Of a stretch of 64,000 nucleotides of DNA, positions 1,771 through 59,430 are shown piece after piece. The position numbers and the translations under genes were made by a program. Every line of letters starts with the position of its first letter. Positions within the stretch are counted from its first letter, which is position 1. The notes under the pieces are model-generated. The model made no database searches, had not been told where the DNA came from, and saw only the letters and a list, made by a program, of their open reading frames with translations. The stretch is from Leucoraja ocellata. Lineage: Eukaryota. The stretch lies in contig JAWMAR010000070.1 of the NCBI GenBank assembly GCA_036785375.1, positions 4,464,001 through 4,528,000 on the forward strand, written 5' to 3'.

Positions 1771-1819
1771 GCCTAATTCTGCTCCTATAATTCATGAACA
1801 TGATGACAGTAAAACCTAC

Positions 1820-1910
1820 CTTAGAGTCTCTTGTGAACACCGCGGTTGAGATACTCCAGATCACAAGCAGGAGAAAGAACATCCAGCGCCCCACTTCCCA
1901 TGAGATGTAA
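1820..1910 (-). CDS. Gene A TM exon SYISWEVGRWMFFLLLVIWSISTAVFTRDSK
   Basis: 91 nt, phase 2-0; hydrophobic helix with E and R near its N-terminus; donor GTAGGT. Confidence 0.88.
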
Positions 1911-4900
1911 CTGGGCAAAGGTCAAGAAATACAGAGTCAATGGGAGGAAACGAGACGGTTAATCTTTGAAGCATTTACCTGTTATTTGCTTCATAATCTT
2001 GGTGAAGTGAAGCGGGGCGAAGCGGCAGCGTCAGTGGAGACCATCTTTGTAAAATAACATGTGTTGGACTGGGAGGGGGGGGGGGGGGGACAACAGATGA
2101 TCACCAATTGTTGACCTCATTGCTGGGGCATGACTATAAGACTGGGAATGAGAGACTACGCGGTTAAATGGATTCAGAGAAGACAGATAAATAAGATGAG
2201 TTGGGGCAGTGAATACAAAACAGATGGACACAAAATGTTGGAGAAAAAAAGCGGGAGAGGCAGCATCTCTCTGGAGAGAAGGAATGCGTGAAGTTCCGGG
2301 TCGAGACCCTTCTTCAGACTGAGAGTCACGGGAGAGGGAAACTGTGGATGTGGAAGGATGCAAAGAACAGTGTGATACCATGGAAGAAAGAAAATGCAGC
2401 TGCAAGGAAGTTTATAATAAAATCCATTTGGATAGGCAGGAATAATAAAAACGGATCAATTCCAATAATGGATGGGAGATGGGCAATAAAAATTCTTCAC
2501 AGATTCAGCCACTCTCCTGTACACATGGGGCAATTTACAACTGGCTCATCTTTGGGAGCTGGGAGGAAACTGGAGCACTTGAATGAAACCAACACAATTA
2601 AAGGCAAAACATGCAGACCACGCACAGACAGCTCCTAATGAACCAATGTCGTGGCGTTGTGAGACTGTGGCTCAACACTCTCACGCATTTAATGCCAGTT
2701 TCTCCCAATTAAAGCATTCCCCAATCAAAACACCAGCAAATAGTACATTGTGACTTTCATTGGAAACAGAGCATTTTACCTTGCAGAGTAATTGGATGGT
2801 ATCGAATTTTCACAATAATATTCAAGACCTGTTGGAACAGGGTAATACAAGTCAGTTTCACTGCTTTTCACTTGCAGTTTAACAAGTAGCTATGGTTTTC
2901 CGATGCAAGGAGTTGATAGGCTTAACAGACAGGGCAATGCTTCTTCTGTGTGATTTGCAGCAAATGGGAGATGTTATCATGACAAGCAAGCGTGCTGGTA
3001 ACAACTCTGGCTCCAGGTGTAGATGGCACGGTGGCGCAGCGGTAGAGTTGCTGCCTTACAGCCAGAGGCACGGGTTCGATCCTGACCACAGATGCTGTCT
3101 GCACGGAATTTGTACCTCCTCCCTGTGACCGCGTGGGGTTTCTACAAGTGCTCCAGTTTCCCCACAGTCTGAACTCTTGCAAGTGTGTTGGTTAATTGGC
3201 TTCTGTAAATTTTCCCCATGGAACTAGTGTACTGGTGATTACTGGACGTTGTGTACTCAGTGGGACGAAGAACCTGCTTCCACGATGTATCCACAAATTA
3301 ATCAAAAGGGTCCAATTTCACTTGAGAGGAGTATTGCTTGGGATGAAACATTACAGTGATGGGGAGGGGTTGGATAGAGGTTTTATAAAATTCCATGCAG
3401 AACAGGTGAGGAAGGGGGGACCTATTACAGGTGTGCAAAACTATGAGCAGCATAGACAGGGTATTTTTGGAACATTTTACAAGACAGATATGTGTAAAAG
3501 TGGAGAACATATGGGTAAGTTAAGGAGCAGGATGTTTGAAGGGTATAAATAAATATTTTTAAACCGAGAAGATAGAGGTACCTGAATTGCCTCAATGGAC
3601 GAGGTGCTGGTAAGTGGGATGAGTATTGATAGTACTGAATGGTCAACATTAACACAGTGACCCAAATGCGATACCGTCGTCTAGGAGTTAACTGTGGCCA
3701 CATTTACTGATAATTTCTGATCCCTTCACATATTTGAGTGTCGGTCATGTGGAGATGATGGAAAGTGAAAATGCTTGGACTGATGTCACTGCAAACCTAG
3801 TTTAAAGCTGTGTAAACATAAGAGGCAGTTCTAGCCGGGAAGCTGGTCTACACCAGCACTGGGAAATCTATTTATGGAGCCCAGCAACCAAGTATTGACA
3901 AATGGGCCATAATTCCATCATTTTAATCTTGATAACGTAATTAAATAACGTGCATGGATTTCAGGGTGTCGTGGGTTATTGGGAGAAGGCAGGAGAATGG
4001 GGTGAAGAGGGGAAGATAGATCAGCCATGATTGAATGGTCTATTTCTGTTTCTATCACATGTGATTTTATGAACCACCCCACCGCACTTCCCCTTCTTCT
4101 CCCCATTCCCTCCACTACTTACCAGTGCCGTTGACTTTCACCAGGAAACTACAGGGCACGTCACTGCTGGAGATGGACACGTTGACCATTTCACTGGATT
4201 TTGATCCATGTTGATTTGAGGCTGTGCAATAATATTGATGGTGCTGGTGTTTGAAGGATTGACAATGTAGATCCAGGGCATTGTTGTCTGAGATCTTTGA
4301 ATCCCCAGATGGGGTCTTTTCATACCAGCTGTAGTTAATGGGAAGGGATCCCCGGACCGACTCACAGGACACTGTCACTGAGCCCCCGAGACAAGAGACA
4401 TTGGCTGGTGACAGACACCCAAGCACAGGAACAGACACGGGTTCTGTGGGAAAGGAGAAAACAGTCAGACACTGAGTGAACATCTGAAAATCAAACACTC
4501 GCCAATATCCACCATCTCTGTATCTTCGCCAGAGCCGCCAGGTTGGAATCTGACCCATCCATCTACTTAGAGTCATAGAGGCATATAGTGTAGAAGCAGG
4601 CCAACATGTCCATCCACACTAGTTCCACCTGCCCTTGCTTAGCCCATAAGCTTCCAAACGGAAGAGACTGTGCATTTACTCGATCTATTCGTCGCGTGAT
4701 TTTGTAGCTGCCGTAAGATCATCCCTCATCCTCCTGCTCTCCCAGAAATAAAGTCCTAGTCCGCTCAATCCCTCCCTGGAGTTCAGGCACTCAAGTCATG
4801 GCAGCATCATTGTAAATCTTTTCTGCACCCAATCTTACTTGATAGCATCTTTCCTATAACATGGTGATGAATACTGACCACAGGGCGGACAAATCATCAG

Positions 4901-20500: not shown

Positions 20501-23500
20501 GAAACGAGACGGTTAATCTTTGCAGCATTTACCTGTTATTTGCTTCGTAATCTTGGTGAAGTGGAGCGGGGCGAAGCGGCAGCGTCAGTGGAGACCATCT
20601 TTGTAAAAGAACGGGTGTTGGACTGGGGGGAGGCGGGGGGGGGGGGGGGGGGGACAACATATGATCACCAATTGTTGACGTCATTGCTGGGGCATGGCTA
20701 CAAGACTGGGAATGAGAGACTACGCGGTTAAATGGATTCAGAGAAGACATATAAATAAATCACGAGATTACACAAAAAAGCTGGAGAAACTCAGCGGGTG
20801 CAGCAGCATCTATGGAGCGAAGGAAATAGTCAACGTTTCGGGCCGAAACCCTTCTTCAGACTAAATAAGTCATGAGTCGGGGCAGTGGAATACAATGAGT
20901 TGGGGCAGTGAATACAAAACAGATGGACACAAAATGTTGGAGAAACAGCGGGAGTGGCAGCATCTCTCTGGAGAGAAGGAATGCGCGAAGTTCCGGGTCG
21001 AGACCCTTCTTCAGACTGAGAGTCACGGGAGAGGGAAACTGTGGATGTGGAAGGATACAAAGAACAGTGTGATACCCTGGAAGAAATAAAATGCAGCTGC
21101 AAGGAAGTTTATAATAAAATCCATTGGGATAGGAATAATAAAAACGGATCAATTCCAATAATGGAAGGGAGATGGGCAACAAAAATGGAAACAGATGAGG
21201 CCAATTAATAAAATAAATTTTAAAATGATTATGCTTAATGTCACGCCCTGGATACTTCGTGGATCAACGCGGTAGGTGTGTGGATGGAGGAATTGTGTTC
21301 GAAAAATCGGTTAAAGATTCGTTCATAACGGCGTGGCTTTCATGAACATTTGCTAACGCAAGTATAACACAAGAGTGTGATAGAAAGTCAGATATATTTC
21401 AATTGTATTAAGATAAATAACAAAGTGTTCTCATTTTCATGAATATATTATGATTGAATGTTTAATGGTTTCAATTATCAACGAGTAAGAGAGAGTCAGT
21501 TAACTCATTTTGCTGTATTCGGTCTGATTCAAGACAATTTTCTGACATTCTGCGCCAGCGATTTTCTGGTGTATGGCCCCATCAATGACAAGGTGTTGCC
21601 ACAAGTGATATCATAGGGAGTGTGGCGTAGCCCATCATTCATAAAGCATTTCCCTATCAGCACCACACAAGAGGAATTCACAGCAAAGCTAAACTGGAAG
21701 ACTAAGGTTTGGGAACTATATTAATCTCACAGCATGGGATGAGGTGAGTGATGGAGCAGTCATGTTGAATACTGCAGGGAGCGCTCTCTGAAAAGCATCA
21801 AATGGAGGAACTTGTTCTTATCATCCAAGCATGTACACAACACAATGAGATGTAAACCAGTGCGATTCCCCTTCTGATGAGTTAACTAATAACTGGTTTG
21901 CAAGTTATATTTATTGTATTAAATAATATTTAATAGATACGTTTATATTTGGTGTCAGGCTTGAAACTTGTACAACAATTGTGCTTCGTGACATTTAGGT
22001 TAATTGGATCAAAGATCCATAGAGAAACACAGTATAGAAACAGGCCATTTCCGTCAACTGCATTCACATGATTCCTGTGTCAATCCTATTTTTATTTCCC
22101 CCACTTTCTCATCAACTACCACCCCCACCCCCACCCACCCCCCTGCCCCCTCCCCCACCCATTCTTCACAGATTCAGCCACTCTCCTGTACACATGGGAC
22201 AATTTACAACTGGCACATCTTTGGGAGCTGGGAGGAAACTGAATGAAACCAACACAATTAAAGGCAAAACATGCAGATCACACACAGACAACACCCATTA
22301 AACCTATGTCGTGGCGTTGCGAGACTGAGTTTCTATAGGCTTTGCCACTGTGCATTCAGATCAATACTCTCACGCATTTATTGCCAGTGAAAGGAAGGCA
22401 CAACTTTCCCCCAATTAAAGCATTCCCAATCAAAACACCAGCAATTAGTACATGCAATTTTCATTGGAAACAGAGCGGTTTACCTTGCAGAGTAATTGGA
22501 TGTTATCGAATTTTCACAAGAATATTCATGACCTGTTGGAACAAGGAAATAAAATCCAGTTTCACTGCTTTTCACTTGCAGTTGAGCAAGGAGGTATGAT
22601 TTTCCGATTTGCAGCAAATGGGAGATGTTGTCATGATAAGCAGGAATGCTTTTAACCACGTTGGCTCTGTAGACGGCACGGTGCCGCAGCGGTGGAGTTG
22701 CTGCCTTCCAGGGCCAGAGACCCAGGTTTGATCCTGACTACGGATGCTGCCTATACGGAATTTGGCCCTCCTACCTGTGATCGCGTGGGTTTCTTCAAGT
22801 GCTCCAGTTTCCCCCAGCGTTCCAAAGTCGTGCAGGTTTGTAGGTTAATTGGCTTCTGTAAATTGTCCCTATGGAACTAGTCTATTGGTGAATACTGGGC
22901 TGTGTGCACTCAGTGGGCCGATGAGCCTGTTTCAAACCTGTATCCATAATGTAATCTAAAGAGTGCAATTTCACTTGAGAGGAATATTGCTTGGGATGAA
23001 ACATTACAGTTATGGGGAGGGGTTTGAAAGGGCATTATAAAAGTCCATGCAGAACAGGTGAGGAATGGGGGACCTATTGCAGGTGTGCAAAACTGTGAGC
23101 TGCAAAGATTAAGTATTTTTAGAAAAACTTGCACGGCAGACATGTGTAAATGTGGAGAACATATGGTTAAGTTCAGGAGCAGGATGTTTCAAGGGTCTCA
23201 AGACATATTTTTAAACGCAGAAAACTGAGGTGCCTGAATTGCCACAATGGACGAGGTGCTGGTAAATGGGATTGTATCGATGGCACTGAATGGTCAACAT
23301 TAACACAGTGGACCAAATCTGATACCGTCGTCCACGAGTTAACTGTGGCCACATTTACTGCTAGTTTCTGTTCCCTTCCCATATTTGAGTGTCGGTCATG
23401 TGGCGATGATGGCGGGAAAGTGAAAGTGCTTGGGCTGATGTCACTGCAAACCCAGTTTAAAGCTGTGTAAACATAAGAGGAAGTTCTAGCCAGGAAGCTG

Positions 23501-26500
23501 GTCTACACCAGCGCTGGGGAATCTATGTCTGGAGCCCAGCAACCAAGTATTGACAAATGGGCCATAATTCCTTCATTTAAATAACGTGCATGGATTTCAG
23601 GGTGTCGGGGGTTATGTGGAGAAGGCAGGAGAATGGGATGAAGAGGGGAGATAGATCAGCCATGATTGAATGGTCTATTTCTGCTTCTATCACGTGATCT
23701 TATGAACCACCCCACCCCCACTTCCCCTTCTTCTCCTCATTCCCTCCACTACTTACCAGTGCCGTTGATTTTCACTAGGAAACAGCAGGGCACGTCACTG
23801 CTGGAGATGGACACGTTGACCATTTCACTGGATTTTGATCCATTATTATTTGAGGCTGTGCAATAATATTGATGGTGCTGGTGTTTGAAGGATTGACAAT
23901 GTAGATCCAGGGCTCTGTTGTCTGAGATCTTTGAATCCCCAGATGGGGTCTGTTCATACCAGGTGTAGCTAATGGGAAGGGATCCCCGGACCGACTCACA
24001 GGACACTGACACTGAGCCGCCGAGACAGGGTTCATTGGCTGGTGACAGGAATCCAAGCACAGGAACAGACATGGGTTCTGTTGGAAAAGAGCAAACATTC
24101 AGACACTGAGTAAACATCTGAAAATCGCCAATATCCACCATCTCTGTATCTTAGCCAGAGCCGCCAAGTTGGAATCTGACCCATCCATCTACATAGAGTC
24201 ATAGAGTCATAGAGTCATGCAGCGTAGAAACAGGCCCTTCGATCTAACTTGCCCGCGCTGACCAACACGCCCAATCTGCACTAGTTCCACCTGCCCTTTC
24301 TTGGCCCTTAATCCTCTAAACATATCATATTCATATAACTGTCTAATATTTTCTTAAATGTTACGATAGTACCTGCCACAATTACTTCTGTCGGCAGTTC
24401 ATGTCATGTACCTACCAACCTTTATGTAAAAACATTACTCCCTAGGTTCTTGTTAAATCATTCCCCCCTCATATTAAACATATGTCCTCCGGTTCTGGAT
24501 TCTCCTACTCTGAGTAAAAGACTCTGTGTATTTACTCGATCTATTCCTCGCATAATGTTTTACCTGCCATCAGATCAACCCACATCCTGCTGCGCTCCAA
24601 GAAATAAAGCCCCAATCTGCTCAACCCCTCCCTGTATGCCAGGCCCTCAAGTCATCGCAACATCCTTGTAAGTCTTCCCTGCTCATTCTCCACACAATTT
24701 ACCAGATTTAATTATCTCTGTGCCTCTCCATCCTCCCAGCTGCCAGAACTACCATGTCTGCCACTGTGCCAGGACACAGCAGCACCATCTCTCTTTGTTT
24801 TACAATTCCAGCATCTGCCGTTAATATGTTTTAATCTAAACCTCTGCCACAATTCTACAATATCAACATTCAAACACTTCATTAGTGCAACATAATCACT
24901 ATCAACAACTTTTTAATTTCCTTGCATAAAATAGTTGATAGTGATACTGTTGCACTAATGAGGTGCATGAATGGCGGTATTGTAGAATTGTGTGCAGGGA
25001 GCGAATGGGGAAGTGGAATAACATAGAACTAGTGTGACCAGTGATCGCTAGTCGGTGAGGACTCTGTGGGCCACAGGATCAGTTTCAATGTTACATTTGT
25101 ACACTATTACTAAATATCCGGGTGAACATGTTTCTGTAAACTCTACAAACCGTTCACATCTTTTGTTTTATAAAGCGGCGACCAGAACTGTGCACCAGAT
25201 TCCCACCTAACACATGTTTTGCCCGTTGCCAAAGTGGGGACATAAAGTCACCCATTGAGAAACCTACCTTCAGATACTTGGAGATATACTTTAAATGTTG
25301 GTTCGCCAGGTGTAGTAATTCCACATCTGTACCATCCTCTATCTCCAGAGTGAAGATCCTCCACAGTCACAGTAAATATTCCTCGTGCCGGGTTAACTGT
25401 GATTGACACTCTTCCGCTCTGTCCATGTTTCCCATTTGTTTCCACTACATGTGGACACTGGCGACTTGTCTCACGACACCAGTATTTTGTGTGTGAGCGG
25501 TACACTGCTGCATAGTGACAATCGATTGAGATCGTTCTTCCCACAACCCCTCGCACTTCGCTCTCAGCCCACAGTGCGCCTGAAACTGAAGGAAACAACT
25601 TTCATAAATTGAAGAGCAAAATTAGCCTTTCACAAACATATACATTCCAGTATACAAGGGAGTCCGCCGACTCATTTTCTTAGCTGTGTTGAATTCCACC
25701 TAGATTGCGATGAGAGACAGATACTGTACACCGGCCCTCACCACCTGCACAGGTCGTTCCAAAGCGCTTCCCAGCCAATGTGGGTGTGAATGGTGAAGAA
25801 TGATGCATTGAACACGGAGCCTCTTGCAATTGGAAGGCGCTGTCTAGGGAGTCTTGGTGAGTTACTGCAGTGCATCGTGCAGATGGTGCAAACTGCTGCT
25901 GCTCTGCATCAGCGGGCGAGGTTGAGGATGGGGTGTCTATCATGCGCGATTCTGGGTCATGACAAACCAAACATAAGTGTTCGGCGAAATTGTAGCCTAG
26001 GCCAGTGCTTCTTAAACTGATGAATGGTTCACCCAAGGGCGAATGAAATTATTTTGGCGTAAATTAGTTAATTTATGTTTTTTGCTCATGCGACAAAATC
26101 AATTATCTATAAAAATTATGCACAAGTGAAAATAAGATGATAATAACCAAAAGAACATAAGAACATATAGTGGAGGGTGAATTAAATCTTGTAATAAAGA
26201 CTTAAGGGCGAATGACACTGTAATAGTTTATTAAGAACTGGCCTTGTATAAAATTGGTCTCGCTGATGTAAACCATTCACACCCTCTTCTGGACTTCCAA
26301 TATGAGCGTCTCCACACCTACAGGGAAGTTCTTTTCAAAATTATCTTTGACAAAAGTAAGGGTTATACTTGATGGAGTGACGGCCAAGTAGATTCCAATT
26401 TAATTTTGTGAGATTACTGGAGTTTAACACAAATTAACAGAGTTAAAATCATGAACATGATCATGAAATTGTACATCCTTGGTTATAACTGATGATGGAT

Positions 26501-33074: not shown

Positions 33075-33169
33075 TGTTTTATCCACAGTGACAAAAGCAG
33101 CACTTTTCTGTCTGTCGCTCAGCTTTGAGCTTTCAGAGACAACCGCGTCTCTCAAATAGCAATGACTTA

Positions 33170-36954: not shown

Positions 36955-39900
36955 CTGCAAAAGACAATGTGAAGTCATCAGACAGACTGACAGTGGGAAC
37001 CACGCTTTATTTGTCCCGGCCACTCCCAACACATTGCTGTCTGCAAGATGCTAACCCACGAATTAGTTAATCCAATGCCAACGAACCCACACCGGGCACA
37101 GAAATCCACTCTGCACGCGTACAACCTGACAGAACCTCGTGATATCATCTACATAGTGATTTGGTTTAACCTCAGGATATGAAAACGTGCACGATTTTTG
37201 TTTCTATCGATGCACAGGATATATGAAAGCATTAATGGAAACCGTTTGGAAACACTCGGCGAAGAGAAGGGATTGCTTTGGGCGAATCCCTTCTGGTGAA
37301 TCTATGGATTTCATTGCCACAGGAGGCTGTGGAGGCCAAGTTAATTCACACCGGAGATGCTGCCTGTCCCGCTGAGCTACTCCAGCATTTTTGTATCTGT
37401 CCAAATTAATTGATATTTTTAAGGCGGAGATTTTCATTTTCTTGATAAATAAGGATATCAATGGTTACTGGGAGAAGGCAGGTGAATGGGATCGAGTGAA
37501 GGATAGATCCGCCGTGATTGGGGGCCGATTAGATATGATGGGCTGAATGGCCTAATTCTTCTCCTATAATTTATGAACACGATGACAATAAAACCTACCT
37601 TAGAGCCTCTTGTGAACACCGCGGTTGAGATACTCCAGATCACAAGCAGGAGAAAGAACATCCAGCGCCCCACTTCCCATGAGATGTAACTGGGCAAAGG
37701 GCAAGAAATACGGAGTCAATGGGAGGAAACGAGACGGTTAATCTTTGAAGCATTTACCTGTTATTTGCTTCATAATCTTGGTGAAGAGGAGCGCGGCGAA
37801 GCGGCAGCGTCAGTGGAGACCATCTTTGTAAAAGAACGGGTGTTGGACTGGGGGGAGGCGGGGGGGGGGGGGGGGGGGGGACAACATTTGATCACCAATT
37901 GTTGACGTCATTGTTGGGGCATGGCTACAAGACTGGGAATGAGAGACTACGCGGTTAAATGGATTCAGAGAAGACAGATAAATAAGTCATGAGTTGGGGG
38001 AGTGAATACAAAACAGATGGACACAAAATGTTGGAGAAACACAGCGGGAGATGCAGCATCTCTCTGGAAAGAAGGAATGCGTGAAGTTCCGGGTCGAGAC
38101 CCATCTTCAGACCAAGAGTCACGGGAGAGGAAAACTGTGGATGTGGAAGGATGCAAAGAACAGTGTGATACCCTGGAAGAAAGAAAATGCAGCTGCAAGG
38201 AGGATTATAATAAAATCCATTTGGATAGGAATAATAAAAACGGATCAATTCCAATAATGGAAGGGAGATGGGCAATACAAATGGAAACAGATGAGGCCAA
38301 TTAATAAAATTAATTAAAAAATGATTATACTTAATCTGACACCCTGGATACTTCGTGGATCAACGCGGTAGGTGTGTGAATGGAGGAATTGTGCTCGAAA
38401 AATGGGTTAAAGTTTCGCTCATAACGGAGTGGCTTTCATGAACATTTGCTAACGCAAGTATAACACAAGAGTGTGATAGAAAGTCAGATCTATTTCAATT
38501 GTGATAAGATAAACAACAAAATGTTCCCACTTTCATGACTATATTATGATTGAATATTTAATGATTTCAAGTATCAACGAGTAAGAGAGAGTCAGTTAAC
38601 TCATTTTGCTGTATTCGGATGAGGTGAGTAATGGAGCAGTCATGTTGAATTCTGCAGGGAGCGCTTTCTGAAAAGCATCAAATGGAGGAACTTGTTCTTA
38701 TCATCCAAGCATGTACACAACACAATGAGATGTAAACCAGTGCGATTCCCCCTCTGATGAGTTAACTAATAACTGGTTTGTAAGTTATATTTATTGTATT
38801 AAATAATATTTAATTGATACGTTTATATTTGGTGTCAGGCTTGAAACTTGTACAACAATTGGTTATGCTTCGTGACATTTAGGTTCATTGGATCAAAGAC
38901 CCATAGAGAAACACAGTATAGAAACAGGCCGTTTCCGCCAACTGCATTCACATGATTCCTGTGTCAATCCTATTTTCATTTCCCCCACTTGCTCATCAAC
39001 TACCACCCCCACCCCCACCCCCACCCCACCCATTCTTCACAGATTCAGCCACTCTCCTGTACACATGGGGCAATTTACAAATGGCTCATCTTTGGGAGCT
39101 GGGAGGAAACTGGAGCACTTGAGTGAAACCAACACAATTAAAGGCAAAACAAGCAGACCACGCACAGACAGTGGTCTCCTAATGAACCAATGTCGTGGCG
39201 TTGTGAGACTGTGGCTCAACACTCTCACGCATTTAATGCCAGTGAAAGGAAGGCACAACTTTCTCCCAATTAAAGCATTCCCCAATCAAAACACCAGCAA
39301 TTAGTACATTGTAACTTTCATTGGAAACAGAGCATTTTACCTTGCAGAGTAATTGGATGGTATCGAATTTTCACAATAATATTCAAGACCTGTTGGAACA
39401 AGGAAATACAAGTCAGTTTCACTGCTTTTCACTTGCAGTTTAACAAGTAGCTATGGTTTTCCGATGAATGGAGTTGATAGGCTTAACAGACAGGGTAATG
39501 CTTCTTCTGTGTGATTTGCAGCAAATGGGAGATGTTATCATGACAAGCAGGAGTGCTGGTAACAACTCTGGCTCCAGGTGTAGATGGCACGATGGCGCAG
39601 CGGTAGCGTTGCTGCCTTACAGCCAGAGGCACGGGTTCGATCCTGACCACGGATGCTGTCTGCACGGAATTTGTAACTCCTCCCTGTGACCGCGTGGGGT
39701 TTCTACAAGTGCTCCAGTTTCCCCACAGTCTGAACTCTTGCAAGTGTGTTGGTTAATTGGCTTCTGTAAATTGTCCCCATGGAACTAGTATACTGGTGAT
39801 TACTGGACGTTGTGTACTCAGTGGGACGAAGAACCTGCTTCCACGATGTATCCACAAATTAATCAAAAGGGTCCAATTTCATTTGAGAGGAGTATTGCTT

Positions 39901-42900
39901 GGGATGAAACATTACAGTGATGGGGAGGGGTTGGATAGGGGTTTTATAAAATTCCATGCAGAACAGGTGAGGAAGGGGGGGGGGGGCTATTACAGGTGTA
40001 CAAAACTATGAGCAGCATAGACAGGGTATTTTTGGAACATTTTACATGACAGATATGTGTAAAAGTGGAGAACATATGGGTAAGTTAAGGAGCAGGATGT
40101 TTGAAGGGTATAAATAAATATTTTTAAACCGAGAAGATAGAGGTACCTGAATTGCCTCAATGGATGAGGTGCTGGTAAGTGAGATGAGTATTGATTGTAC
40201 TGAATGGACAACATTAACACAGTGACCCAAATGCGATACCGTCGTCTAGGAGTTAACTGTGGCCACATTTACTGATAATTTCTGATCCCTTCACATATTT
40301 GGGTGTCGGTCATGTGAAGATGATGGAAAGTGAAAATGCTTGGACTGATGTCACTGCAAACCTAGTTTAAAGCTGTGTAAACATAAGAGGCAGTTCTAGC
40401 CGGGAAGCTGGTCTACACCAGCGCTGGGAAATCTATTTCTGGAGCCCAGCAACAAAGTATTGACAAATGGGCCATAATTCCATCATTTTAATCTTGATAA
40501 CGTAATTAAATAACGTGCATGGATTTCAGGGTGTCGGGGGTTATGGGGAAAAGGCAGGAGAATGGGGTGAGGAGGGGAAGATACATCAGCCATGATTGAA
40601 TGGTCTATTTCTGCTTCTATCACATGTGATCTTATGAACAACCCCACCCCCACTTCCCCTTCTTCTCCCCATTCCCTCCACTACTTACCAGTGCCGTTGA
40701 TTTTCACCAGGAAACTGCAGGACACGTCACTGCTGGAGATGGACACGTTGACCATTTCACTGGATTTTGATCCATGTTGATTTGAGACTGTGCAATAATA
40801 TTGATGGTGCTGGTGTTTGAAGGATTGACAATGTAGATCCAGGGCATTGTTGTCTGAGATCTTTGAATCCCCAGATGGGGTCTTTTCATACCAGCTGTAG
40901 TTAATGGGAAGGGATCCCCGGACCGACTCACAGGACACTGTCACTGAGCCCCCGAGACAAGAGACATTGGCTGGTGACAGACACCCAAGCACAGGAACAG
41001 ACACGGGTTCTGTGGGAAAGGAGAAAACAGTCAGACACTGAGTGAACATCTGAAAATCAAACACTCGCCAATATCCACCATCTCTGTATCTTCGCCAGAG
41101 CCGCCAGGTTGGAATCTGACCCATCCATCTACTTAGAGTCATAGAGGCATATAGTGTAGAAGCAGGCCAACATGTCCATCCACACTAGTTCCACCTGCCC
41201 TTGCTTAGCCCATAAGCTTCCAAACGGAAGAGACTGTGCATTTACTCGATCTATTCGTCGCGTGATTTTGTAGCTGCCGTAAGATCATCCCTCATCCTCC
41301 TGCTCTCCCAGAAATAAAGTCCTAGTCCGCTCAATCCCTCCCTGGAGTTCAGGCACTCAAGTCATGGCAGCATCATTGTAAATCTTTTCTGCACCCAATC
41401 TTACTTGATAGCATCTTTCCTATAACATGGTGATGAATACTGACCACAGAGCGGACATATCATCAGACAATCTTCGATTCTCTTTTACATTTCAGGAATT
41501 GCCAGCAGGAAAAAGGGAGCATTGTTTATATAACTGTCGGACCCATCCCATCTACATAGATTCGTAGAGTCATACAGTAGAAACAGGCCCTTCGGCCTAA
41601 CTTGCCCGCGCTGACCAACACGCCCAATCTACACTAGTTCCACCTGTCCTTTCTTGGCCCTTAATCCTCTAAACATATCCTATTCATGTAACTGTCCAAT
41701 ATTTTCTGAAATGTTACGATAGTACCAGCCATAACTACTTCCGTCAGCATTTCGTTTCATGGACCTACCAACCTTTGTGTAAACACGTTACTCGCCAGGT
41801 TCCTGTTAAACCATTCCCCCCTGATATCAAAACTATGTCCTCTGGTTCCCGATTCCCCTACTCTGGGCAAAAGACTGTGTATTTACTCGATCTAGTCCTC
41901 GCGTTATTTTTGTGATTTTTGTGATTTAAAAAAAAAATTAAGAACTATTTTTATTAGAAGCAATGTACAGTAGTATAAACCGTGTATAACATATTACATT
42001 TCGTGTACAACCTCTTGTTTTTAATTTATTAATAGAAAAGTAACAGAAGCAAAACAGAGAAGGAGAGAGAAAGTTAAGTAGTGATATTGATAGTTCGTGA
42101 AAGAATAGATAGAAAGAACCCGTAAGGTTATAAAGCCGCAAAAAAACCGTGACCCCCCCCCCAAAAAAATAAATACATAAATTAGTAAATAGAAATAAAA
42201 AATAGAAAATAAAATAAAATAATAAGAAAACAAAACAGAAAAGGAATAAAAGGGAGAAGGGATATACCTGCTTCATGTCTTTCCACACCCCTCACCCAGT
42301 TCTGAAACAGTTAATTTCCAGGGTTATGTTGCACCATGTACTTGGAATAAGTCGATAAAAGGAGACCAAATCTTTAGGAATTGGTCTGCTTTACCTGCAA
42401 GGCCGAATCTCATATCTTCGAGGTGTAACATTTCAGACATGCTTGAAGTCCACATTTTAAGCGTGGGGGTGGGTTCGTTCTTCCAGAATTTGAGTATACG
42501 TTTTTTTTTGCTGTTATCAAGCCATGGTTAAGGAGAGAATTTTGGAACGAAATCACCTTAGAGCCGGCTTCCATTGTTCCAAAAATAATCAATTCTGTGT
42601 TGGGGTCCAATTTTATTTTAAACTCGCAGGATTTGTTTACCTGCAATAAAATCACCCCTCATCCTCCTGCGTTCCAAGGAATAAAGCCCTAATCTGCTCA
42701 ACCCCTCCCTGCATACCAGGCCCTCAAGTCATCGCAACATCCTTGTAAATCTTCTCTGCTCCTTCTCCTCACAATCCACTTACCAGATTTAGACATCTCT
42801 GTGTCTCTCCATCCTCCCAGCCGCCAGAACTACCATGTCTGCCACTGTACCAGTACACAGCTGCACCATCTCTCTTTGTTTTACAATTCCAGCATCTGCA

Positions 42901-45900
42901 GTTAATCTTCTTTTAATCTGAAACTATTTATAATCTGAACATTCAAACGCCTCATTAGTGCAACAGTATCACTATCAACAACTTTTTTATTTCCTTGCAT
43001 AAAATTGTTGATGGTGATACTGTTGCACTAATGAGGTGTGTGAATGGCGGTATTAGTGTGTAGGGAGCGAATGGGGAAGTGGAATAATATAAAACTAGTG
43101 TGACCGGTGATCGCTAGGTGGTGAGGACTCGGTGGGCCGAAGGATCCGTTTCCATGTTACATTTGTAAACTATTACTAAATATCCCGGTGACATTTTCTG
43201 TAAACTCTACAAACCTTTCACATCTTTTGTTTTATAAAGCGGCGACCAGACCTGTGCACCAGACTCCCACCTAACAAATATTTTGTCCGTTGCGAAGGTG
43301 GAGACATAAAGTCACCCATTGAGAAACCTACCTTCAGAAACTTGGAGATGTACTTTAAATGTTGGTTCGCCAGGTGTAGTAATTCCACAGCTGTACCATC
43401 CTGTATCTCCAGAGTTAAGATCCTCCACAGTCACAGTAAATATTCCTCGTGCCGGGTTATCTGACATTGACACTCTTCCACTCTGTCCATGCTCCCCATT
43501 TGTTTCCACTACATGTGTACACTGGCGACTTGTCCCATTGCACCAGTATTTTGTGTGTGAGCGGTACACTGCCGCATAATGACAATCGATTGTGATCGCT
43601 CGTCCCACAACCCCGTGTACTTCGCTCTCTACCCGCAGTGCACCTGAAACGGAAGGAATCATCTTTCATAAATTGAAGAGAAAAATTAGCCTTTCACAAA
43701 CATATACATTATAGCATGCTTCAATGTGTACAGGGGAGTCCGCGCAATGATTTTCTTAACACTGTTGAATTCCACCTAGATTGCGATGAGAGACAGATAC
43801 TGTACACTGTCCCTCACCATCTGCACAGGTCGTTCCAAAGCGCTTCCCAGCCAATGTGGGTGTGAATGGTGAAGAATGATGCATTGAACGCTGAGCCTGT
43901 TGCAATTGGAAGGCGCTGTCTCGGGAGTCTTGGTGAGTTGCTGCAGTGCATCGTGCAGATGGTGCAAACTGCTGCTGCTCTGCATCAGCTTTTGAGGATG
44001 GGGTGTCTATCAAGTGCGATTCTGGATCATGACAGACCAAGCACAAGTGTTCAGTGGAATTGTAGCCGCGGCCAGTGCTTCTTAAACTAGTGAATGGTTC
44101 ACCCAAGGGTGAATGAACTTATTTTGGGGGTCAATTAGTTAATTTGTGTGTTTTGCTCATGTGACAAAATTAATCATATATAAAATTATGCACAAGGGAA
44201 AATAAGATGATAATAACCAAAAAAACATAAGAACATTAAGTTGAGGGGGAATTACATCTTGTAATAAAGACTCAAGGGTGAATGACATTGAAATATTTTA
44301 TGAAGAACTGCCATTCTATAAACTTGGTCACTCTGATTTACACTCTATTCTGGACTTCCAATCTGAACGTCTCCACACCTACTGGGAAGTTCTTTTCAAA
44401 ATTCTCTTTAACAAAATTAAGGGTTATACTTGATGGAGTGACGGCCAAGTAGATTCACAGCAATTTTGTGAGATTACTGGAGTTTGACTCAAATTACCAG
44501 TTAAAATCATAAACATAATCATGAAATTGTACACCCTTCATTGGAAATGATGGCGGATCCAAACAGAATGAATTTGGTGCGTTCTCCGACTCAAAGTGAG
44601 TGTGAGAACTTAAGTGATAGCCAGAAATAATATTTTTAAGTTGGAATGCCGAAATTTGATGGAATGCACTAAACACGTTGTGATACGTGCATGTTTGTCT
44701 CTCCTTTGCTGAAATTGCTCAACACATCCCAGTTGGAAGCAACGGGCTATTATTTGCCAGTCCCCCAAACAAACTCTCGCATTTACACCACGAGCTGCAA
44801 TGATGCCGTCTGCAAATAACAAGAAATCCATGAACATCACCACAAGGCGAATAGCAGCAGGTTCAGGGACACGAGAAGAATACTCACCTGCATTGTTGAT
44901 TTCTGTCACATAACTGCACGTTCCTGCTCCTTTGAAGACTTTCACGTTGAGACTTTCACTGGATTTTGTCCCATGATTATTTGAGGCTGTGCAGTAATAT
45001 TGACGGTGTTGGCCGGCGAGGATTTCACAACTCAGATCCAGTTGATTGCCATACACGGTAGTTGAAACCCAATGCTCGTTCTTCTCAAACCATGTGTAAC
45101 GGATGGGAAGGGATCCACGGACAGACTCACACGACACTGACACTGAGCCTCCGAGACGTGAGGCATTTGCTGCTGATAGATATCTGAGCACAGGAGCAGA
45201 CACGGGTTCTGTGGAATGGAGCAAACATTCAGTCACCTGTATGAAAAGTTAAAAAGCTTGCTAAATCTCAACAACCCTTTATCTCAGCCCGAACCGCCCG
45301 GTTGACATCTCACCGGCTCATCCACATCTCTGTGAGTGTGCGAAGCCCAGAAACCGAAGAAGGTTAGAGTTATAGAGAACCGAAAGATGCCCATCACAAC
45401 AGCTCATTCATGCCGACCAACATGTCTTTCTGGACCATTTCCTTATGTCCACGTTTCTCCCTTATCACTCGCAATGATCCCATTCTACACAAATATCAAA
45501 TAAATATTTTAAATGCGGTTATTCTAACTGCCTCAACAACTTCCTCTGGCCGCAGGTTCCATATAAATATCACCCAATGTGTGGACAATGTTGTCCATCA
45601 GAACAGAAGTTGGGATGTTATGTTTCAGTTGTACATATGTTGTTGAGGTCGAACTTGGGCGAATTGTGTTCAGCTTCGGCCACTCACCTGTACAAAACAT
45701 GCCATTACAGTAAGTGACAGCTTACTACCCCCCCCCCCCCCCCCCACCCCTCTTTAAATAGTTCCCATTGCGTCCGTCCTCCACTTTTTGATTCCACACA
45801 TCGTGGGAAAATGAACATGCTTCTCGTGATTGATACATTTCTATAGGCTCCTCGCTCAATCATTTCCACACCAAGGAATGAAGTCTGAGTTTGTCCAATC

Positions 45901-48900
45901 GCTCCCTGCGTCAATCACGTCCTGTCCAGGCAGCGTCGTACCAGGGGGCTGACCTGCCCCGAGTGGACTGAACGCAGTCTGTGGAACTCTGGGGCCGGAT
46001 TCCCTGTTTATTATTCTCCGGGTATTCAGACCGTGAGCAACACTTGTTTCTCACTGATCTCTCGGGTTATTAGTTTGAGCGGGAATGCAAACCTCTGACA
46101 GGGTGACATTTCATACAGTTCAGACGCAGGGAAATGTGCTGAGCATCCCACTTGAAGTGGGTGGCCGCTCAGTGGGACAGAGCCCGCACCGGGTGAGAGC
46201 AACATGAGTGGGGTTTCCCGACCCCCGCCCGCTCCCCGCAGGTCTCTGCACTGCTGCAGAGCCTCGGGATATCGGTGTTGCCCTGACCCTTCCCGGAGAA
46301 AACATGGATCAAGCATTTCAGTGGAGACGTCAAGTCCATCGCTAGGAAACGTACCGTCAGATACTTGGAGATGTAGGGAAAACATTGGATGGGCGGCAGA
46401 TGTTCTAATTCCACAGATGTATCTTCCTGTATCTCCAGAGTGAAGATCCTCCACAGTCACAGTAAATAGTCTTAGTGCCGGTATATCTGTGATTGATACT
46501 CTTCCACTCCGTCCGTGTTGCCCATTAGTTTCCACCATATCTGTACATTGGCGACTCCACCCACGGCACCAGTATTTTGTGTGTGAGCGGTACTCTGTTG
46601 CATAGTGACAATCGATTGTGATCGCTCTTCCCACATCTCCTGTTACATTCTTCTTCCCCCAAACTGCAACTGAAATGGAGGGGAAAAACATTTAGATGGA
46701 GAGCAAATGAACTGTTTAATGGAAATAGATACATTTCGAAGATCACATGAAAGAAAACATAAACGTTCCATGATGTGTCATATTGCTTCACGCCCAATGT
46801 CTCCGGTCTGAAGTGCAGGCGGTGCTGTTATTGTACCAGTTGTGTCAGTGTTCTGTCCCCGGGTCAGTACAATTTGGGTTCACTTCCCACTCCAGATCTC
46901 AGAGCAGAAACTGGGCTGGAATCGCAATTCGGTACTGAGGGAGCGCGGCAGTGTTGCAGGAGCTGCCTTTCAACAATCCCTGGCGGTGCCCGGCCTCTCA
47001 CCCCACAGAAAGACCCACTTTGCTATTTAATTGGCGGTGCCGCCGGCTGCGCTGCCAACATTCTTCTCTCAACCGACACTGGGCCGGACCCGTGTTTAGA
47101 CATTCACCGCCTTTACAACGCCCTGACTGAGGGCAGTGAACGGACGGGTTACAATAAAGCGGATCAAAAGATAAGGAGCAGGATGTTTGAAGGGTATAAA
47201 TAAATATTTTTAAACCGAGAAGATAGAGGTACCTGAATTGCCTCAATGGACGAGGTGCTGGTAAGTGGGATGAGTATTGATTGTACTGAATGGTCAACAT
47301 TAACACAGTGGACCAAATCTGATACCGTCGTCTAGGAGTTAACTGTGGCCACATTTACTGATAATTTCTGATCCCTTCACATATTTGAGTGTCGGTCATG
47401 TGGAGATGATGGAAAGTGAAAATGCTTGGACTGATGTCACTGCAAACCTAGTTTAAAGCTGTGTAAACATAAGAGGCAGTTCTAGCCGGGAAGCTGGTCT
47501 ACACCAGCACTGGGAAATCTATTTATGGAGCCCAGCAACCAAGTATTGACAAATGGGCCATAATGCCATCATTTTAATCTTGATAACGTAATTAAATAAC
47601 GTGCATGGATTTCAGGGTGTCGGGGGTTATGGGGAGAAGGCAGGAGAATGGGGAGAAGAGGGGAAGATACACCAGCCATGATTGAATGGTCTATTTCTGC
47701 CGCTATCCTATGAACCACCCCGCCCCCCACTTTCCCTTCTTCTCCCCATTCCCTCCACTACTTACCAGTGCCGTTGATTTTCACCAGGACACTGCAGGGC
47801 ACGTCACTGCTGAAGATGGACATGTTGACCATTTCACTGGATTTTGATCCATGTTGATTTGAGGCTGTGCAATAATATTGATGGTGCTGGTGTTTGAAGG
47901 ATTGACAATGTAGATCCAGGGCATTGTTGTCTGAGATCTTTGAATCCCCAGATGGGGTATTTTTATACCAGCTGTAGTTAATGGGAAGGGATCCCCGGAC
48001 CGACTCACAGGACACTGTCACTGAGCCCCCGAGACAAGAGACATTGGCTGGTGACAGAAACCCAAGCACAGGAACAGACACGGGTTCTGTGGGAAAGGAG
48101 CAAACAGTCAGACACTCAGTGAACATCTGAAAATCAAACACTCGCCAATATCCACCATCTCTGTATCTTCGCCACAGCTGCCTGGTTGGAATCTAACCCA
48201 TCCATCTACTTAGAGTCATAGAGGCATATAGTGTAGAAGCAGGCCAACATGTCCATCCACACTAGTTCCACCTGCCCTTGCTTAGCCCATAAGCTTCCAA
48301 ACGGAAGAGACTGTGCATTTACTCGATCTATTCGTCGCGTGATTTTGTAGCTGCCGTAAGATCATCCCTCATCCTCCTGCTCTCCCAGAAATAAAGTCCT
48401 AGTCTGCTCAATCCCTCCCTGGAGTTCAGGCACTCAAGTCATGCTTCAGGCTCTCAACCGACACTGGGCCGGACCCGTGTTTAGACATTCACCGCCTTTA
48501 CAACGCCCTGACTGAGGACAGAGGACGGACGGATTACAATAAAGCGGATCAAAAGATAAGAGACCATAGGTGCAGGAGTAGGCCATTCGGCCCCTCGAAC
48601 CAGCACCGACATTCACTATGATCATGGCTGATCATCCACAATCAGTATCCCGTTCCTACCTTACTATATATCCCCTAGCGCCGCTATCATTTGGAGTTCC
48701 ATCTAACTCTCCCTCCCTGACGTTTAGTGTCGAGACCCATGCTCAGACCCGAAACTTCACCAATTCCTTCTCTCCAGAGATGCTGCCTGTCCCGCTGAGT
48801 TACTCCAGCATGTTTTAGTCTATCTTTAATTGACTTTTATTTCCTTTTCTCAACAGAATCTGAATCTATACGCGAGTCGTTAACAACTGTAGCGTTCAGT

Positions 48901-51900
48901 TCAAATACAAAAGTAACACCCGAAAACAGTCATCAGGAAACCACTGCGCCCAGTTTCTCTCACGGGTGTAATGTTCTGTTGCTCAAGTTTTGATTGGCCT
49001 TACTTTTCCATATGAGAGTTGGAGACACATGGAACTGTAGATACATACATAGATACATAGATACATAGATGCATAGACAATAGGTGCCATTGCATAGACA
49101 ATAGTATGCCATTCAGCACTTCCAGCCAGCACCGCCATTCTATGTGATCATGGCTGATCATCCACAATCAGTACCCCGTTCCTGCCTTTCCCCATATCCC
49201 TTGATTCCGCCAGCCCAAATAGCTCTATCTAACTCAAAAGAATGCACCCAGTGAATCGGCTTCCACTGCCGTCTGAGGCAGAAAATTCCACAGATTCACA
49301 ACTCTCTGGTTGAAAAAGTTTTTCCTCATCTCCGTTCTAAATGGCCTATCCATTATTCTTAAACTGTGGCCCCCTGTTTCGGGACTCGCCAATATCGGAA
49401 ACATGTTAGGTACACAAAAATGCTGGGGAAACTCAACGGGTGCAGCAGCATCTATGAAGCGAAGGAAATAGGCGACATTTCGGGCCGAAACCCTTCTTCA
49501 GACTGTTTCCTGCCTCTAGCGTGTCAAATCCCTTAGTAATCTTATATGTTTATATCCCTCAATAGCAAGAAGGTCCTTCCTCACATTTGGAGTTCAAAAC
49601 TGCACCCAATATTCCAGGTGTGGTCTCACTAGGGCCATGTACAACTGCAGAAGGACTACTTTTCTCCTGTGCTCAAATCCTCTTGTTATTAAGGTCAACA
49701 TGCCACTAGCTTTCTTCACTGCCTGCTGCACCTGCATGCTTTATTTCAGTCAGTGATGAACAAGGACACCCATATCTAGTTGTACTTCTCCTTTTCCCAA
49801 CCTGACACCATCCAGAAAATAATCTGCCTTCCTGCTTTTGCTACTAAAGTGGATAACCTCACATTTATCCACATTAAACTTCATCTGCCACGCATCTGCC
49901 CACTAACACAACCACTCTCCCACTCACCACTCGCTCACTCACCACCCGCCTCCAGGTCCCTTATCGGAGAGCGTTACGAGCGTGAAATCGCACACCGCCA
50001 GATTCGGAAGCAATTTCTTCACAGCTGTTATCAGGCATCTGAATCATCCTACCACATCCAGAGATCTGTCCTGAACTCCCATCTACCTCTTTGACGACCC
50101 TCGGACTACCCTTGATCGGACTTTGCTGGCTTTACCTTACATTAAACGTTATTTCCTTTTCATGTATCTATGTGCTGTAAGAGGATAGATTGTAATCCTG
50201 TATTGTCTTTCTGCTGGAGACGTCAATCAATCGCTGCGAAACCTACCGTCAGATACTTCGAGATAAACGTTAAATATTGGATGGTCGGCAGATGTTGTAA
50301 TTCCACATCTGTACCATCCTGTATCTCCATCCTGAAGATCGTCCACAGTCACAGTAAATATTCCTCGTGCCGGGTTATCTGTGATTGACACTCTTCCACT
50401 CCGTCCGTGTTGCCCATTTGTTTCCACCAACACTGTACATTGGAGACTCCTCCCACGGCACCAGTATTTTGTGTGTGAGCGGTACTCTGCTGCATAGTGA
50501 CAATCGATTATGATCGCTCTTCCCACAACTCCTCTTACATCCCTCTTTGCCCACACTGCTCCTGAAACTGAGCGGAGAAACTTTCAAATGGAGAGAAAAT
50601 TAACTGTTTAATGGAAATAGACACATATTGAAGATTACATGAAAGAAAACTTAAATCGTTCAATGATGTGTCATATTGCTTCACGGCCAATGTCTCCGGT
50701 CTGAAGTGCAGGCAGTGCTGTTATTGTACCAGTTGTGTCAGTGTTCTGTTCCCGGTCAGTACAATTTGGGTTCACTTCCCACTCCAGATCCCTGAACAGA
50801 AACAGGGCTGGGATCGCAGTGCGGTACTGAGGGAGCGCGGCAGTGTTGCAGGAGCTGCCTTTCAACAATCCCAGGCGGTGCCCGGCCTCTCACCCCACAG
50901 AAAGACCCCACTTTGCTATTTCATTGGCGATGCCGTCGGCTACGCTGCCAACATTCATCTCTCAACCGACACAGGGCCGGATCCGTGTTTTTTTAAATTA
51001 TCTAATTATTTATTCAATTATTAAAAATAATATTTACACTACAATAAAACAAGAACCGAACACCATAATACAAGACAAATAAATATTCTAAATAAACGAC
51101 TATACTTGTCAAGGATGAATTCAACCCCAGGCGGTGCCCAGATCTCCCGGAAATCCTCCAGGTGCCCGTGGACAGCGCCTAGTCATTCTCTAGTACCACC
51201 CGGGCGCGGAAAGCCGACCCGTGTTTAGACATTCACCGCCGCCAATGCCTTTACAACGCCCTGACTGAGGACAGAGGGCGGACGAGTTACAAAAAAGTGG
51301 GTCCATTACCAGTGCTGAACTATCTACCTCTTTGGTGACCCTCGGACTACCCTTGATCGGACTTTGCTGGCCTCACCTTACACTAAACGTTATTTCCCAT
51401 TCATGTATCTATGCGCTGTAGGGATCGACTGTAATCATGTATCTGGCAGGTTAGCATGCAACAAAAAGCTTTTCTCTGTAACTCTGTACACGTGACAATA
51501 AACTGAAATTAAATTTCAGCACGACTGGGCGGCGGATCCGATAGCGGATGGAGAGAGAGTTGGCGGTGGGTGGATAGAGCGAGGACAGTGGTTCAGTCTC
51601 AGACTCCGGGGAATTGTTGGGTTTACGACAGAGTTGAGTTGGACAAATGCAGGGAATATTTGAACTGACACAATGAGTCCACAATCGTGACTTCCACCTC
51701 TGTTGTAAACACATTTTGTTAGTGTAGAATTAACTTCCTGGTGATGGTAGAACCTCTGTCCTTCGGTCCAGGTGTCTTGGAATATCTGCTCCAAATACAT
51801 TCGCTATTTTATGCCTATAATCTATCATCATGATGCAATTAGACCACGTGTTAACGGTGGTCAAACTACGAACATAGTCTAGATATTCAAATGTGATTTC

Positions 51901-52077
51901 AGATCCATCACCAGAATGCACTGAGTTCCATCTCCCCCATTACATGTCTACACACACTTAACCATCTCTGCTGTAGAAAGGGTGCACGGGACCCCAACTA
52001 ACATTGATCATTGGAATATCAAGATCTGACTTTCACTCACCGGGTAGCGAGGCGATGAGAAGAATGGGAATCCACAT
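36907..52077 (-). CDS. Gene C (spliced, complete, about 801 aa): CD300/pIgR-like, MDIR-like receptor with (V-C2)x3 ectodomain, activating type
   Basis: Exons 52077-52041, 50567-50247, 48086-47766, 46669-46355, 45208-44888, 44021-43818, 43643-43332, 41009-40689, 39389-39341, 37823-37758, 37689-37599, 36954-36907. They sum to 2406 nt. Two V exons need the downstream in-frame AG. Confidence 0.75.
37599..37689 (-). CDS. Gene C TM exon
   Basis: 91 nt; SYISWEVGRWMFFLLLVIWSISTAVFTRGSK. Confidence 0.88.
37758..37823 (-). CDS. Gene C stalk exon
   Basis: 66 nt, phase 2-2. Confidence 0.7.
39341..39389 (-). CDS. Gene C micro-exon GLEYYCENSIPSNYSA(R)
   Basis: 49 nt, phase 1-2. Confidence 0.8.
40689..41009 (-). 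CDS. Gene C C2b exon
   Basis: 321 nt; nearly identical to gene A C2b. Confidence 0.9.
43332..43643 (-). CDS. Gene C V4 exon
   Basis: Usual AG is now CG; the downstream in-frame AG gives 312 nt; KYWCNGTSRQC. Confidence 0.78.
43818..44021 (-). CDS. Gene C putative linker exon
   Basis: 204 nt; in-frame 6-nt deletion relative to A and B. Confidence 0.55.
44888..45208 (-). CDS. Gene C C2a exon
   Basis: 321 nt; donor GTGAGT. Confidence 0.88.
46355..46669 (-). CDS. Gene C V2/V3-hybrid V exon
   Basis: Usual acceptor lost; the next in-frame AG gives 315 nt; KYWCRGWSRQC..DTGRYICG. Confidence 0.75.
47066..48560 (+). repeat. 110-bp direct repeats (47066-47175 and 48451-48560) flanking the inserted C2 exon segment
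   Basis: CTCTCAACCGACACTGGGCCGGACCC...GGATCAAAAGATAAG occurs twice with about 4 mismatches. Confidence 0.92.
47766..48086 (-). CDS. Gene C extra C2b-type exon (inserted copy)
   Basis: 321 nt, intact splice sites, near-identical to the C2b exons. Confidence 0.8.
49060..49905 (-). mobile_element. Fragmented CR1 3' region with a nested Penelope-derived insert (about 49410-49503)
   Basis: Reverse complement of the CR1 ORF2 C-terminus and 3'UTR. Confidence 0.8.
50247..50567 (-). CDS. Gene C V1 exon
   Basis: 321 nt; KYWCRGRSLQC. Confidence 0.9.
52041..52077 (-). CDS. Gene C leader exon
   Basis: MWIPILLIASLP followed by G|GTGAGT. Confidence 0.9.
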
Positions 52078-58611: not shown

Positions 58612-59430
58612 ATCGACAAAAGTGGTGAATACTGCCCATTCCGTCGATGGTTCTCACCTCCCCACCCTCGCAGGGATTTACAAGAATCGCTGCCTCAAAA
58701 GGACAGCCAGCATGATCAGAGGCCCACACAAACATGGCCACGAACCCATCTCAACCCTACCATCGGAAGACGGTACAGGAACTGAAAAACTATAATGACT
58801 AGCTTCAGAGCAGCTTCCTCCCAACAGCCATCAGGTTAGTAAACACAATAACCTCCAATAAACTCTGACCGACATAGACTAGGATGGGATTAATTTTGTC
58901 TTTTGCAATATTATTGTGTGCTTATTTNNNNNNNNNNNNNNNNNNNNNNNNNNNNNNNNNNNNNNNNNNNNNNNNNNNNNNNNNNNNNNNNNNNNNNNNN
59001 NNNNNNNNNNNNNNNNNNNNNNNNNNNNNNNNNNNNNNNNNNNNNNNNNNNNNNNNNNNNNNNNNNNNNNNNNNNNNNNNNNNNNNNNNNNNNNNNNNNN
59101 NNNNNNNNNNNNNNNNNNNNNNNNNNNNNNNNNNNNNNNNNNNNNNNNNNNNNNNNNNNNNNNNNNNNNNNNNNNNNNNNNNNNNNNNNNNNNNNNNNNN
59201 NNNNNNNNNNNNNNNNNNNNNNNNNNNNNNNNNNNNNNNGATATCGGATATATGATATAGTATTATAATATAATATATTAAATATCACACACATACTTAC
59301 ACATACACACTGAACTTTTTATCGTTTAAATTATTTACATAGTCCTATGTTTATATATTCTGTTATGCTGCTGCAGGTAAGAATGTCATTGTTCTGTATG
59401 GGACATGTGACAATAAAACACTTTTGATTT
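58612..59430 (+). mobile_element. Second Rex1-like 3' fragment spanning the gap
   Basis: KVVNTAHSV.G..LPTL..IYK.RCLKR.ASMI. Confidence 0.65.
58928..59239. other. Assembly gap
   Basis: Run of N. Confidence 1.

Follow-up and report, generated by a model that had tools for sequence, protein, structure and literature searches.

An old C2-type immunoglobulin exon copy between two V exons of a skate MDIR gene, probably made by local templated insertion

The window that we analysed is a stretch of 64 kb from the genome of Leucoraja ocellata, and all positions given here are those within it. It carries three tandem genes on the minus strand (A, B and C), which consist of V-set and C2-type Ig exons, all of them in phase 1-1. 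Genes A and B have the layout L-V-V-V-C-V-C, and gene C reads L-V1-insert-V2-C2a-V4-C2b-stalk-TM-tail in ten exons (Table 1). The frame of gene C is open both with the inserted exon (709 aa) and without it (602 aa). The inserted exon, read from 48086 to 47766, is 321 nt long, is bounded by AG and GT, has phase 1-1 and contains no stop codon. Pfam recognizes Ig_3/Ig_2 in the inserted exon and V-set in both neighbouring exons; for gene C as a whole, V-set is assigned to V1, V2 and V4, and Ig_3/Ig_2/Ig_C17orf99 to the three C2 exons. The last exon of gene C contributes 15 residues and an Arg stands at the start of the transmembrane stretch; the product is probably a short-tailed activating receptor that would bind an adaptor.

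Several minor features of the cluster accompany these gene models. Where gene C has a single V exon (46058-47039), genes A and B carry two, V2 and V3 (at 9772-11875 in A and 28310-30226 in B). Since V2 of gene C resembles V2 along one of its flanks but V3 along the other, a V exon appears to have been duplicated in A and B or lost in C through unequal crossing-over. The leader of gene B (33040-33086) was found by protein match and had been missed by the exact pattern that caught the leaders of A and C; no tail exon for gene A was found by pattern search within the window. At 59721-60035 and 62253-62369 on the minus strand there are weak matches (31-38%) to an MDIR3-type inhibitory transmembrane segment and tyrosine-motif tail. 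Here an upstream gene of the inhibitory kind probably has its 3' end, which would make this a paired activating/inhibitory cluster. The window contains two N gaps, at 13069-13286 (218 N) and 58928-59239 (312 N), neither of them close to the insert.

Table 1. Positions of the exons of gene C, the C2b copies and the parts of the insertion within the window
Feature	Positions	Strand	Remarks
Gene C leader exon	52041..52077	-	
Gene C V1 exon (adjoins insert upstream)	50247..50561	-	
Stack of high-copy repeat fragments	48543..49954	.	Missing from paralogous introns
Right copy of host direct repeat	48451..48560	.	Self-BLAST
Filler, 7 nt	48444..48450	.	With the next host letters repeats 48425-48437 at 12/13
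CR1-like 3' relic in copied intron	48210..48443	-	Presumed from a motif; contains the copy's gene-upstream breakpoint
C2b exon copy with intron, ~590 bp downstream and ~360 bp upstream	47172..48443	-	Gene orientation, collinear with donors
Inserted C2-type Ig exon	47766..48086	-	5 lineage-specific changes, all amino-acid changing
TAAG microhomology	47172..47175	.	Host and donor
Left copy of host direct repeat	47066..47175	.	Ends ~10 nt into probable 3' tail of CR1-like element
Gene C V2 exon (adjoins insert downstream)	46355..46669	-	
Gene C C2a exon	44888..45208	-	
Gene C V4 exon	43332..43643	-	
Candidate donor, gene C (C2b exon 41009-40689)	40086..41366	-	97.0% to insert, aligned letters
Gene C stalk exon	39341..39389	-	
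Gene C transmembrane exon	37599..37689	-	Arg opening hydrophobic stretch, MDIR5-like
Gene C short cytoplasmic exon and stop codon	36907..36954	-	
Gene B C2b region, outgroup copy (exon 24077-23757)	23173..24215	-	91.8% to insert
Candidate donor, gene A (C2b exon 4443-4123)	3521..4800	-	97.4% to insert, 98.3% to gene C copy

Judged by their predicted proteins, these are skate MDIR genes, that is, genes for CD300/pIgR-like receptors. The family was reportedly introduced by Cannon and colleagues in 2006. PMC3031540 describes MDIRs as relatives of CD300, TREM, FCAR and pIgR. The nearest named proteins are of skate origin: MDIR5 and MDIR3 of the clearnose skate, and a RefSeq model of Leucoraja erinacea that matches the inserted exon at 98%. 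Like MDIR5 (ABC86800.1) and MDIR3 (ABC86797.1), gene C has an ectodomain of V-set and C2 domains, with likenesses to the named MDIRs of 84-87% for the C2 domains and 75-87% for the V domains; MDIR5 also resembles gene C in the leader (11/12), the transmembrane segment (87%) and the tail (69%). However, the predicted order V-C-V-C-V-C of gene C differs from both, since MDIR5 is V-C-V-C and MDIR3, together with four Amblyraja models (P0034, P0035, P0037 and P0041), is V-V-C-V-C. The second domain of gene C is a C2 domain of the membrane-proximal type, whereas the six-domain L. erinacea model P0019, among the close matches listed, has a C2a-type domain in this place. The layout V-C-V-C-V-C is found in 13 of the 120 relatives listed (out of 130 found), and 78 of the 120 are strictly alternating V-C repeats; these layouts come mostly from automated models, some of which are fused. 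None of the Amblyraja models compared is an exact ortholog of gene C: P0034 reaches 94% to V2 and 66% to V1, P0035 reaches 88% to V1 and 74% to V2, and both have the five-domain layout, so that a direct view of the empty site in a second species did not emerge from this comparison.

Self-BLAST of the window identifies the surroundings of the inserted exon as a copy of 1.27 kb that comprises the C2b exon and its intron flanks and is collinear with both candidate donors; 47168-48443 aligns to 3517-4800 at 96.4% and to 40082-41366 at 96.1%, each in one collinear alignment. The copy lies between direct repeats of host sequence of 110 bp that agree in 106 letters (96.4%) and differ at 47133, 47137, 47139 and 47148. 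Three of the four differences are derived in the left copy; they cluster within 7 nt (47133-47139), about 40 nt off the junction, and could stem from a single error-prone synthesis event. At the left junction, the TAAG common to host and donor extends to seven of eight letters, with one mismatch, if the comparison is carried to 47168. At the right junction, donor sequence continues to 48443, the filler follows, and host sequence resumes at 48451. The filler and the host letters after it form a 13-mer that is repeated, with one mismatch, 20 nt away. In an exhaustive comparison only 6 of the 16,384 possible 7-nt fillers scored as well (1 in 3,000 in an earlier sampling), and the filler looks locally templated. 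The original prediction had described a 1.27-kb C2b exon copy, intron included, between two V exons, a 110-bp host duplication on both sides, TAAG microhomology at the left junction, a CTTCAGG filler that resembles GTTCAGG about 20 nt earlier, and an intact exon in phase 1-1, and the alignments bear out each of these points.

The motif that is repeated on both sides of the copy occurs once in each of the leader-V1 introns of the three genes in the window, where it is split by an unrelated insertion; the single-motif state is thus ancestral. The splitting insertion, of about 250 bp, lies inside the same motif in all three genes (about 13599-13861 in A, 31879-32141 in B and 50980-51226 in C), has an 11-bp duplication on its flanks, begins with a run of T and is missing from the V1-V2 intron of gene C. 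It looks like the 3' end of a retroelement. Compared with its paralogs, the V1-V2 intron of gene C also contains a separate 1.4-kb stack of repeats. The left host repeat terminates about 10 nt inside the first element of this stack, and the stack appears to be older than the exon copy.

The copy itself is, to judge by its divergence, old and not fresh. Over aligned letters, A and C are closer to each other than either is to the insert, and B stands at about 92%. In a tree of the four DNA copies, A and C group together with moderate support (84/88), and the insert falls outside this pair on a branch of 0.018 changes per site; six sites support the A+C split, and two and one support the alternatives. 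The phrase "caught in the act" in the original prediction, which had also proposed such a tree as a check, does not hold: the insert is an outgroup to A and C on a branch of 1.8%, A pairs with C and not with the insert, and the arrangement is already present in L. erinacea. At the mutation rate given for the epaulette shark in PMC10587355 (7 x 10^-10 per base per generation), this branch corresponds to more than 10 million generations, and at a tenfold faster rate to more than 2 million. As the rate comes from another species and conversion between paralogs can inflate the branch, we call the insert old and put no figure on its age.

Conversion has probably also blurred the identity of the donor. 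A tract of 600 bp that spans the C2b exon and intron upstream of it is 100% identical in genes A and C (4266-4866; in C near 40.8-41.4 kb), with flanks at 94-98%, and is a probable case of recent gene conversion. In the L. erinacea model, the two terminal C2b domains likewise pair together (82/75, weak). Together these observations suggest that the donors were probably homogenised after the copy was made, and the donor cannot be named. Candidates were searched within the 64-kb window; the donor was presumably an ancestor of the present A and C copies of C2b, or an unseen paralog, with A and C being homogenised afterwards.

With regard to mechanism, the copy was on balance probably made by one local templated insertion with two template switches, in which 110 bp of host sequence were re-replicated. 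Replication or repair synthesis would have jumped from the V1-V2 intron to the nearby C2b region and returned to the host 110 bp short of its departure point, copying these 110 bp again. Such a single event with two template switches would be a local "cycle of templated insertion" of the MMBIR/FoSTeS or polymerase-theta type, and would come last in an order of events that runs from the V duplication through the repeat stack to the exon copy. In section 7 of Li et al. 2020 (PMC7025897), a cycle is defined by a host segment that is re-replicated and a template that is retained at its source. Both features are present here: the insert is a copy whose source was kept, and the 110-bp repeat is made of a motif that is single in three paralogous introns. 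The skate locus thus resembles these cycles, and MMBIR/FoSTeS, in its two junctions, its retained template and its re-replicated host segment; however, the cycles described there are somatic and typically join different chromosomes, whereas the skate case is germline, old and confined to one gene cluster. The right junction also has the feature of SD-MMEJ, or polymerase-theta repair, that an insertion is templated from a repeat motif near the break (12/13 letters, 20 nt away), and the sequence of a short insertion templated beside the break and then microhomology is alike; but SD-MMEJ is defined at induced breaks in Drosophila and accounts for only one junction in the skate. Both donor and target belong to this cluster, at a distance of 7 kb should gene C have been the donor. 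The repeats (4/110) and the insert and its candidate donors (2.6-3.0%) have diverged to a similar extent, as a single origin predicts, although an origin in two steps predicts equal ages too. Homologous recombination between repeat relics was considered and rejected, as the pieces at the left junction that resemble relics are in opposite orientation and have only a few letters in common.

An origin in two steps is possible, if less probable. A 7.1-kb tandem duplication of 40086-47175 at TAAG would have been followed by a 5.7-kb deletion of the equivalent of 41367-47065 in the second copy, with end joining and a templated filler, and the 110-bp repeat would then be a leftover and no target-site duplication. 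If the present sequence is divided into segments A (40086-41366), B (41367-47065) and C (47066-47175), this route reproduces the observed layout A-B-C-A-C letter for letter, so that duplication followed by deletion and the one-step insertion give an identical sequence. The intermediate would stay in frame, and a filler templated beside the break is a signature of SD-MMEJ at deletion junctions (PMC2943611). The cluster also rearranges often: at least 100 bp in net length are gained or lost in 5 places between genes A and B, 5 between A and C and 7 between B and C, many of them repeat insertions, and genes A and B have one V exon more than C. However, two events are needed, and the second must end no more than 110 bp from the end point of the first. 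A restarting fork is expected to come back this close to where it departed, whereas we estimate that a later, independent deletion would end so close about 1 time in 10 over an intron of about 2.5 kb. Moreover, this route requires gene C as donor, but the C2b copy of gene C is not the sister of the insert in the tree; this objection is weak, since the 600-bp tract shared by A and C indicates later conversion. We therefore favour the one-step insertion, in which the close return is expected and gene C need not be the donor. The original prediction had likewise proposed a local template switch at the DNA level, which remains the best reading together with the microhomology and the templated filler, but had overlooked tandem duplication followed by deletion.

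It is unlikely that the copy was templated by RNA. Unspliced pre-mRNA of the same or a neighbouring gene would have served as template for synthesis that was primed at a nick in the resident CR1-like tail and carried out by a CR1-type reverse transcriptase or a repair polymerase; alternatively, the CR1-like relic would have carried the exon along by 3' transduction. In the first form of this doubtful scenario, the enzyme would have copied the gene's own unspliced transcript in cis and left a 110-bp target-site duplication, giving a domain gain with retained introns. Target-primed reverse transcription leaves a polarity, with extra nucleotides at the 5' junction and microhomology at the 3' junction. 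The skate copy has both, the microhomology lying in the probable CR1 tail, and in gene sense the copy opens within a CR1-like 3' relic of the same orientation (48443 to 48210); however, this polarity has even odds by chance. The original prediction had excluded retrotransposition by the retained introns and the lack of poly-A, which is insufficient by itself because LINEs of the CR1/L2 type end in short repeats instead of poly-A. The better argument is that the copy sits in its own cluster, where dispersed retrotransposition would almost never place it: its closest known sources lie only 7 kb and 44 kb away. The 3' end of the copy is plain intron at 4 bp of microhomology, with neither poly-A nor a repeat tail. 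The relic is old, short and about 80% like its neighbours in the window, and read depth in the bin 48149-48345 is 937-11,155 compared with 3.9-5.8 million at 48543-48739, depth being no measure of copy number; the relic thus appears hardly active. The duplication of 110 bp also exceeds the target-site duplications of about 5-15 bp measured for LINEs in cells, as reported in PMC4245944. Templating by RNA is thus unlikely mainly because donor and target are neighbours. An RNA lariat was rejected as a source, as the copy has no splice site at either end.

Even less credible is the re-integration of an extrachromosomal DNA circle excised from the C2b region, which the original prediction had offered as an option: the retained introns, and junctions with only microhomology and a short filler, resemble circle-derived duplications as described in PMC7450558, but the permuted order that marks circular intermediates there is lacking, each donor alignment being one collinear block, and the circle would need to have opened exactly at its own junction or already have held the 110-bp host piece.

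Very probably the insert is not an assembly artefact, although the repetitive cluster, with several near-identical segments and two N gaps in the window, invites that suspicion. Eighteen substitutions are private to the insert where all four copies can be aligned, and it alone has lost a stretch of 10 bp; it is thus no duplicate of a donor. The L. erinacea RefSeq protein XP_055510906.1 contains V1, insert, V2, C2a and V4 in the order of gene C at 96, 98, 96, 98 and 98%, respectively. The second domain of this protein agrees with the insert in all but 2 of 106 residues, has the three residues that are diagnostic of the insert, and groups with it (94/88) in a protein tree of 22 C2 domains, in which 13 of 18 forks are open and the bootstrap has not settled, and of which only this pair is used. 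A record that differs by 2-4% per exon thus has this exon at the corresponding position, diagnostic residues included, which makes misassembly unlikely and answers the suggestion in the original prediction to look for the exon in another species. The model runs into the next gene and lacks a transmembrane exon; as an automated model that fuses two genes, it is no evidence for transcription or splicing. In residues 653-1076 of another L. erinacea model, P0005, the gene after C reads V1-C2a-V4-C2b, with A-like and B-like exons mixed and no V2 or V3; gene number and domain order may differ between the L. erinacea genome and the window, or the model may skip exons.

We mapped sequencing reads from 4 of the 24 runs listed to 44800-50700 at 92% likeness, a mapping swamped by high-copy repeats at 48543-50118; the DNA runs closest to the window share 0.48 and 0.46 of its words. 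In run X2 (organism B), letters particular to the insert have a depth of 24.5 at 48117 and 29.1 at 48175, compared with 23-25 for single-copy-like contigs, or about one copy. Among the joints listed (15 of 949) and the pieces listed (24 of about 371,600), no read or contig crosses the junctions at 47172 and 48443-48451, which under such mapping carries no weight either way, and an artefact is the least probable of the explanations considered here. At four diagnostic places of the insert (48117-48183), run X1 (organism A) has only donor-type letters and run X2 has both types; run X1 has a single-copy-like contig across the repeat-stack junction at 48795-49034. Organism A may have the repeat stack without the exon copy, a lead only, since coverage holes prove nothing. 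Collapsed contigs reach a depth of 262 compared with 32 in X1 and about 300 compared with 24 in X2; such depth is no copy number, but hints at more paralogs than the window shows.

The process at work here is already known, and V-C-V-C-V-C is a frequent layout among MDIR relatives. Symmetric phase 1-1 Ig modules are shuffled by intronic recombination, and the skate insert resembles such shuffling in that a single-domain exon was moved with its intron flanks and the frame was kept. What sets it apart from old shuffling events is that both breakpoints can still be read at the level of single bases, which is unusual but implies no new process. Exon shuffling is usually inferred from domain orders once the breakpoints have decayed, whereas here the junctions, the filler and the re-copied piece of host sequence are legible. 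The locus thus provides a worked example of a phase 1-1 Ig exon moving without homologous crossing-over, in a family that owes its name to modular domains; the empty site or an intermediate could still be present in related skates. If the copy had after all been templated by RNA, the same route would help to explain the modular domain orders of MDIRs. We found no account of the insertion in the MDIR literature searched, which was mainly openly accessible.

Spliced from V1 through the insert to V2, gene C is predicted to encode one extra Ig domain, a gain that the original prediction had stated as given, and the insertion would have turned V-V-C-V-C into V-C-V-C-V-C. If the exon is spliced in, the ectodomain is likely to be longer, with V1 and V2 spaced apart. 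In RNA run X24, sense-strand depth is 2.82 and 0.38 on the two bins of the insert and stays below 3 on the exons, from a sample of about 5 in 100 reads and in a range that paralogous C2b exons could supply; the splice joints 50247->48086, 47766->46669 and 50247->46669 do not appear among the joints listed, which, with so few listed, speaks neither for nor against splicing. A search among short transcript-derived proteins for the insert exon gave three distant proteins only, and the protein cluster of XP_055510906.1, which has one member, holds no isoforms. In the lineage of the insert exon, 5 of 321 nt have changed; all five changes replace an amino acid and none is silent, and the rate equals that of the branch as a whole. 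In simulations of neutral change, the fraction of exons that survive is 0.76 with respect to stop codons and splice sites, 0.51-0.71 with respect to frameshifts, and about 0.4-0.55 for both combined. With changes that are all replacements, a rate like that of the branch and a frame whose survival is an even chance, the exon bears no sign of purifying selection, nor of loss.
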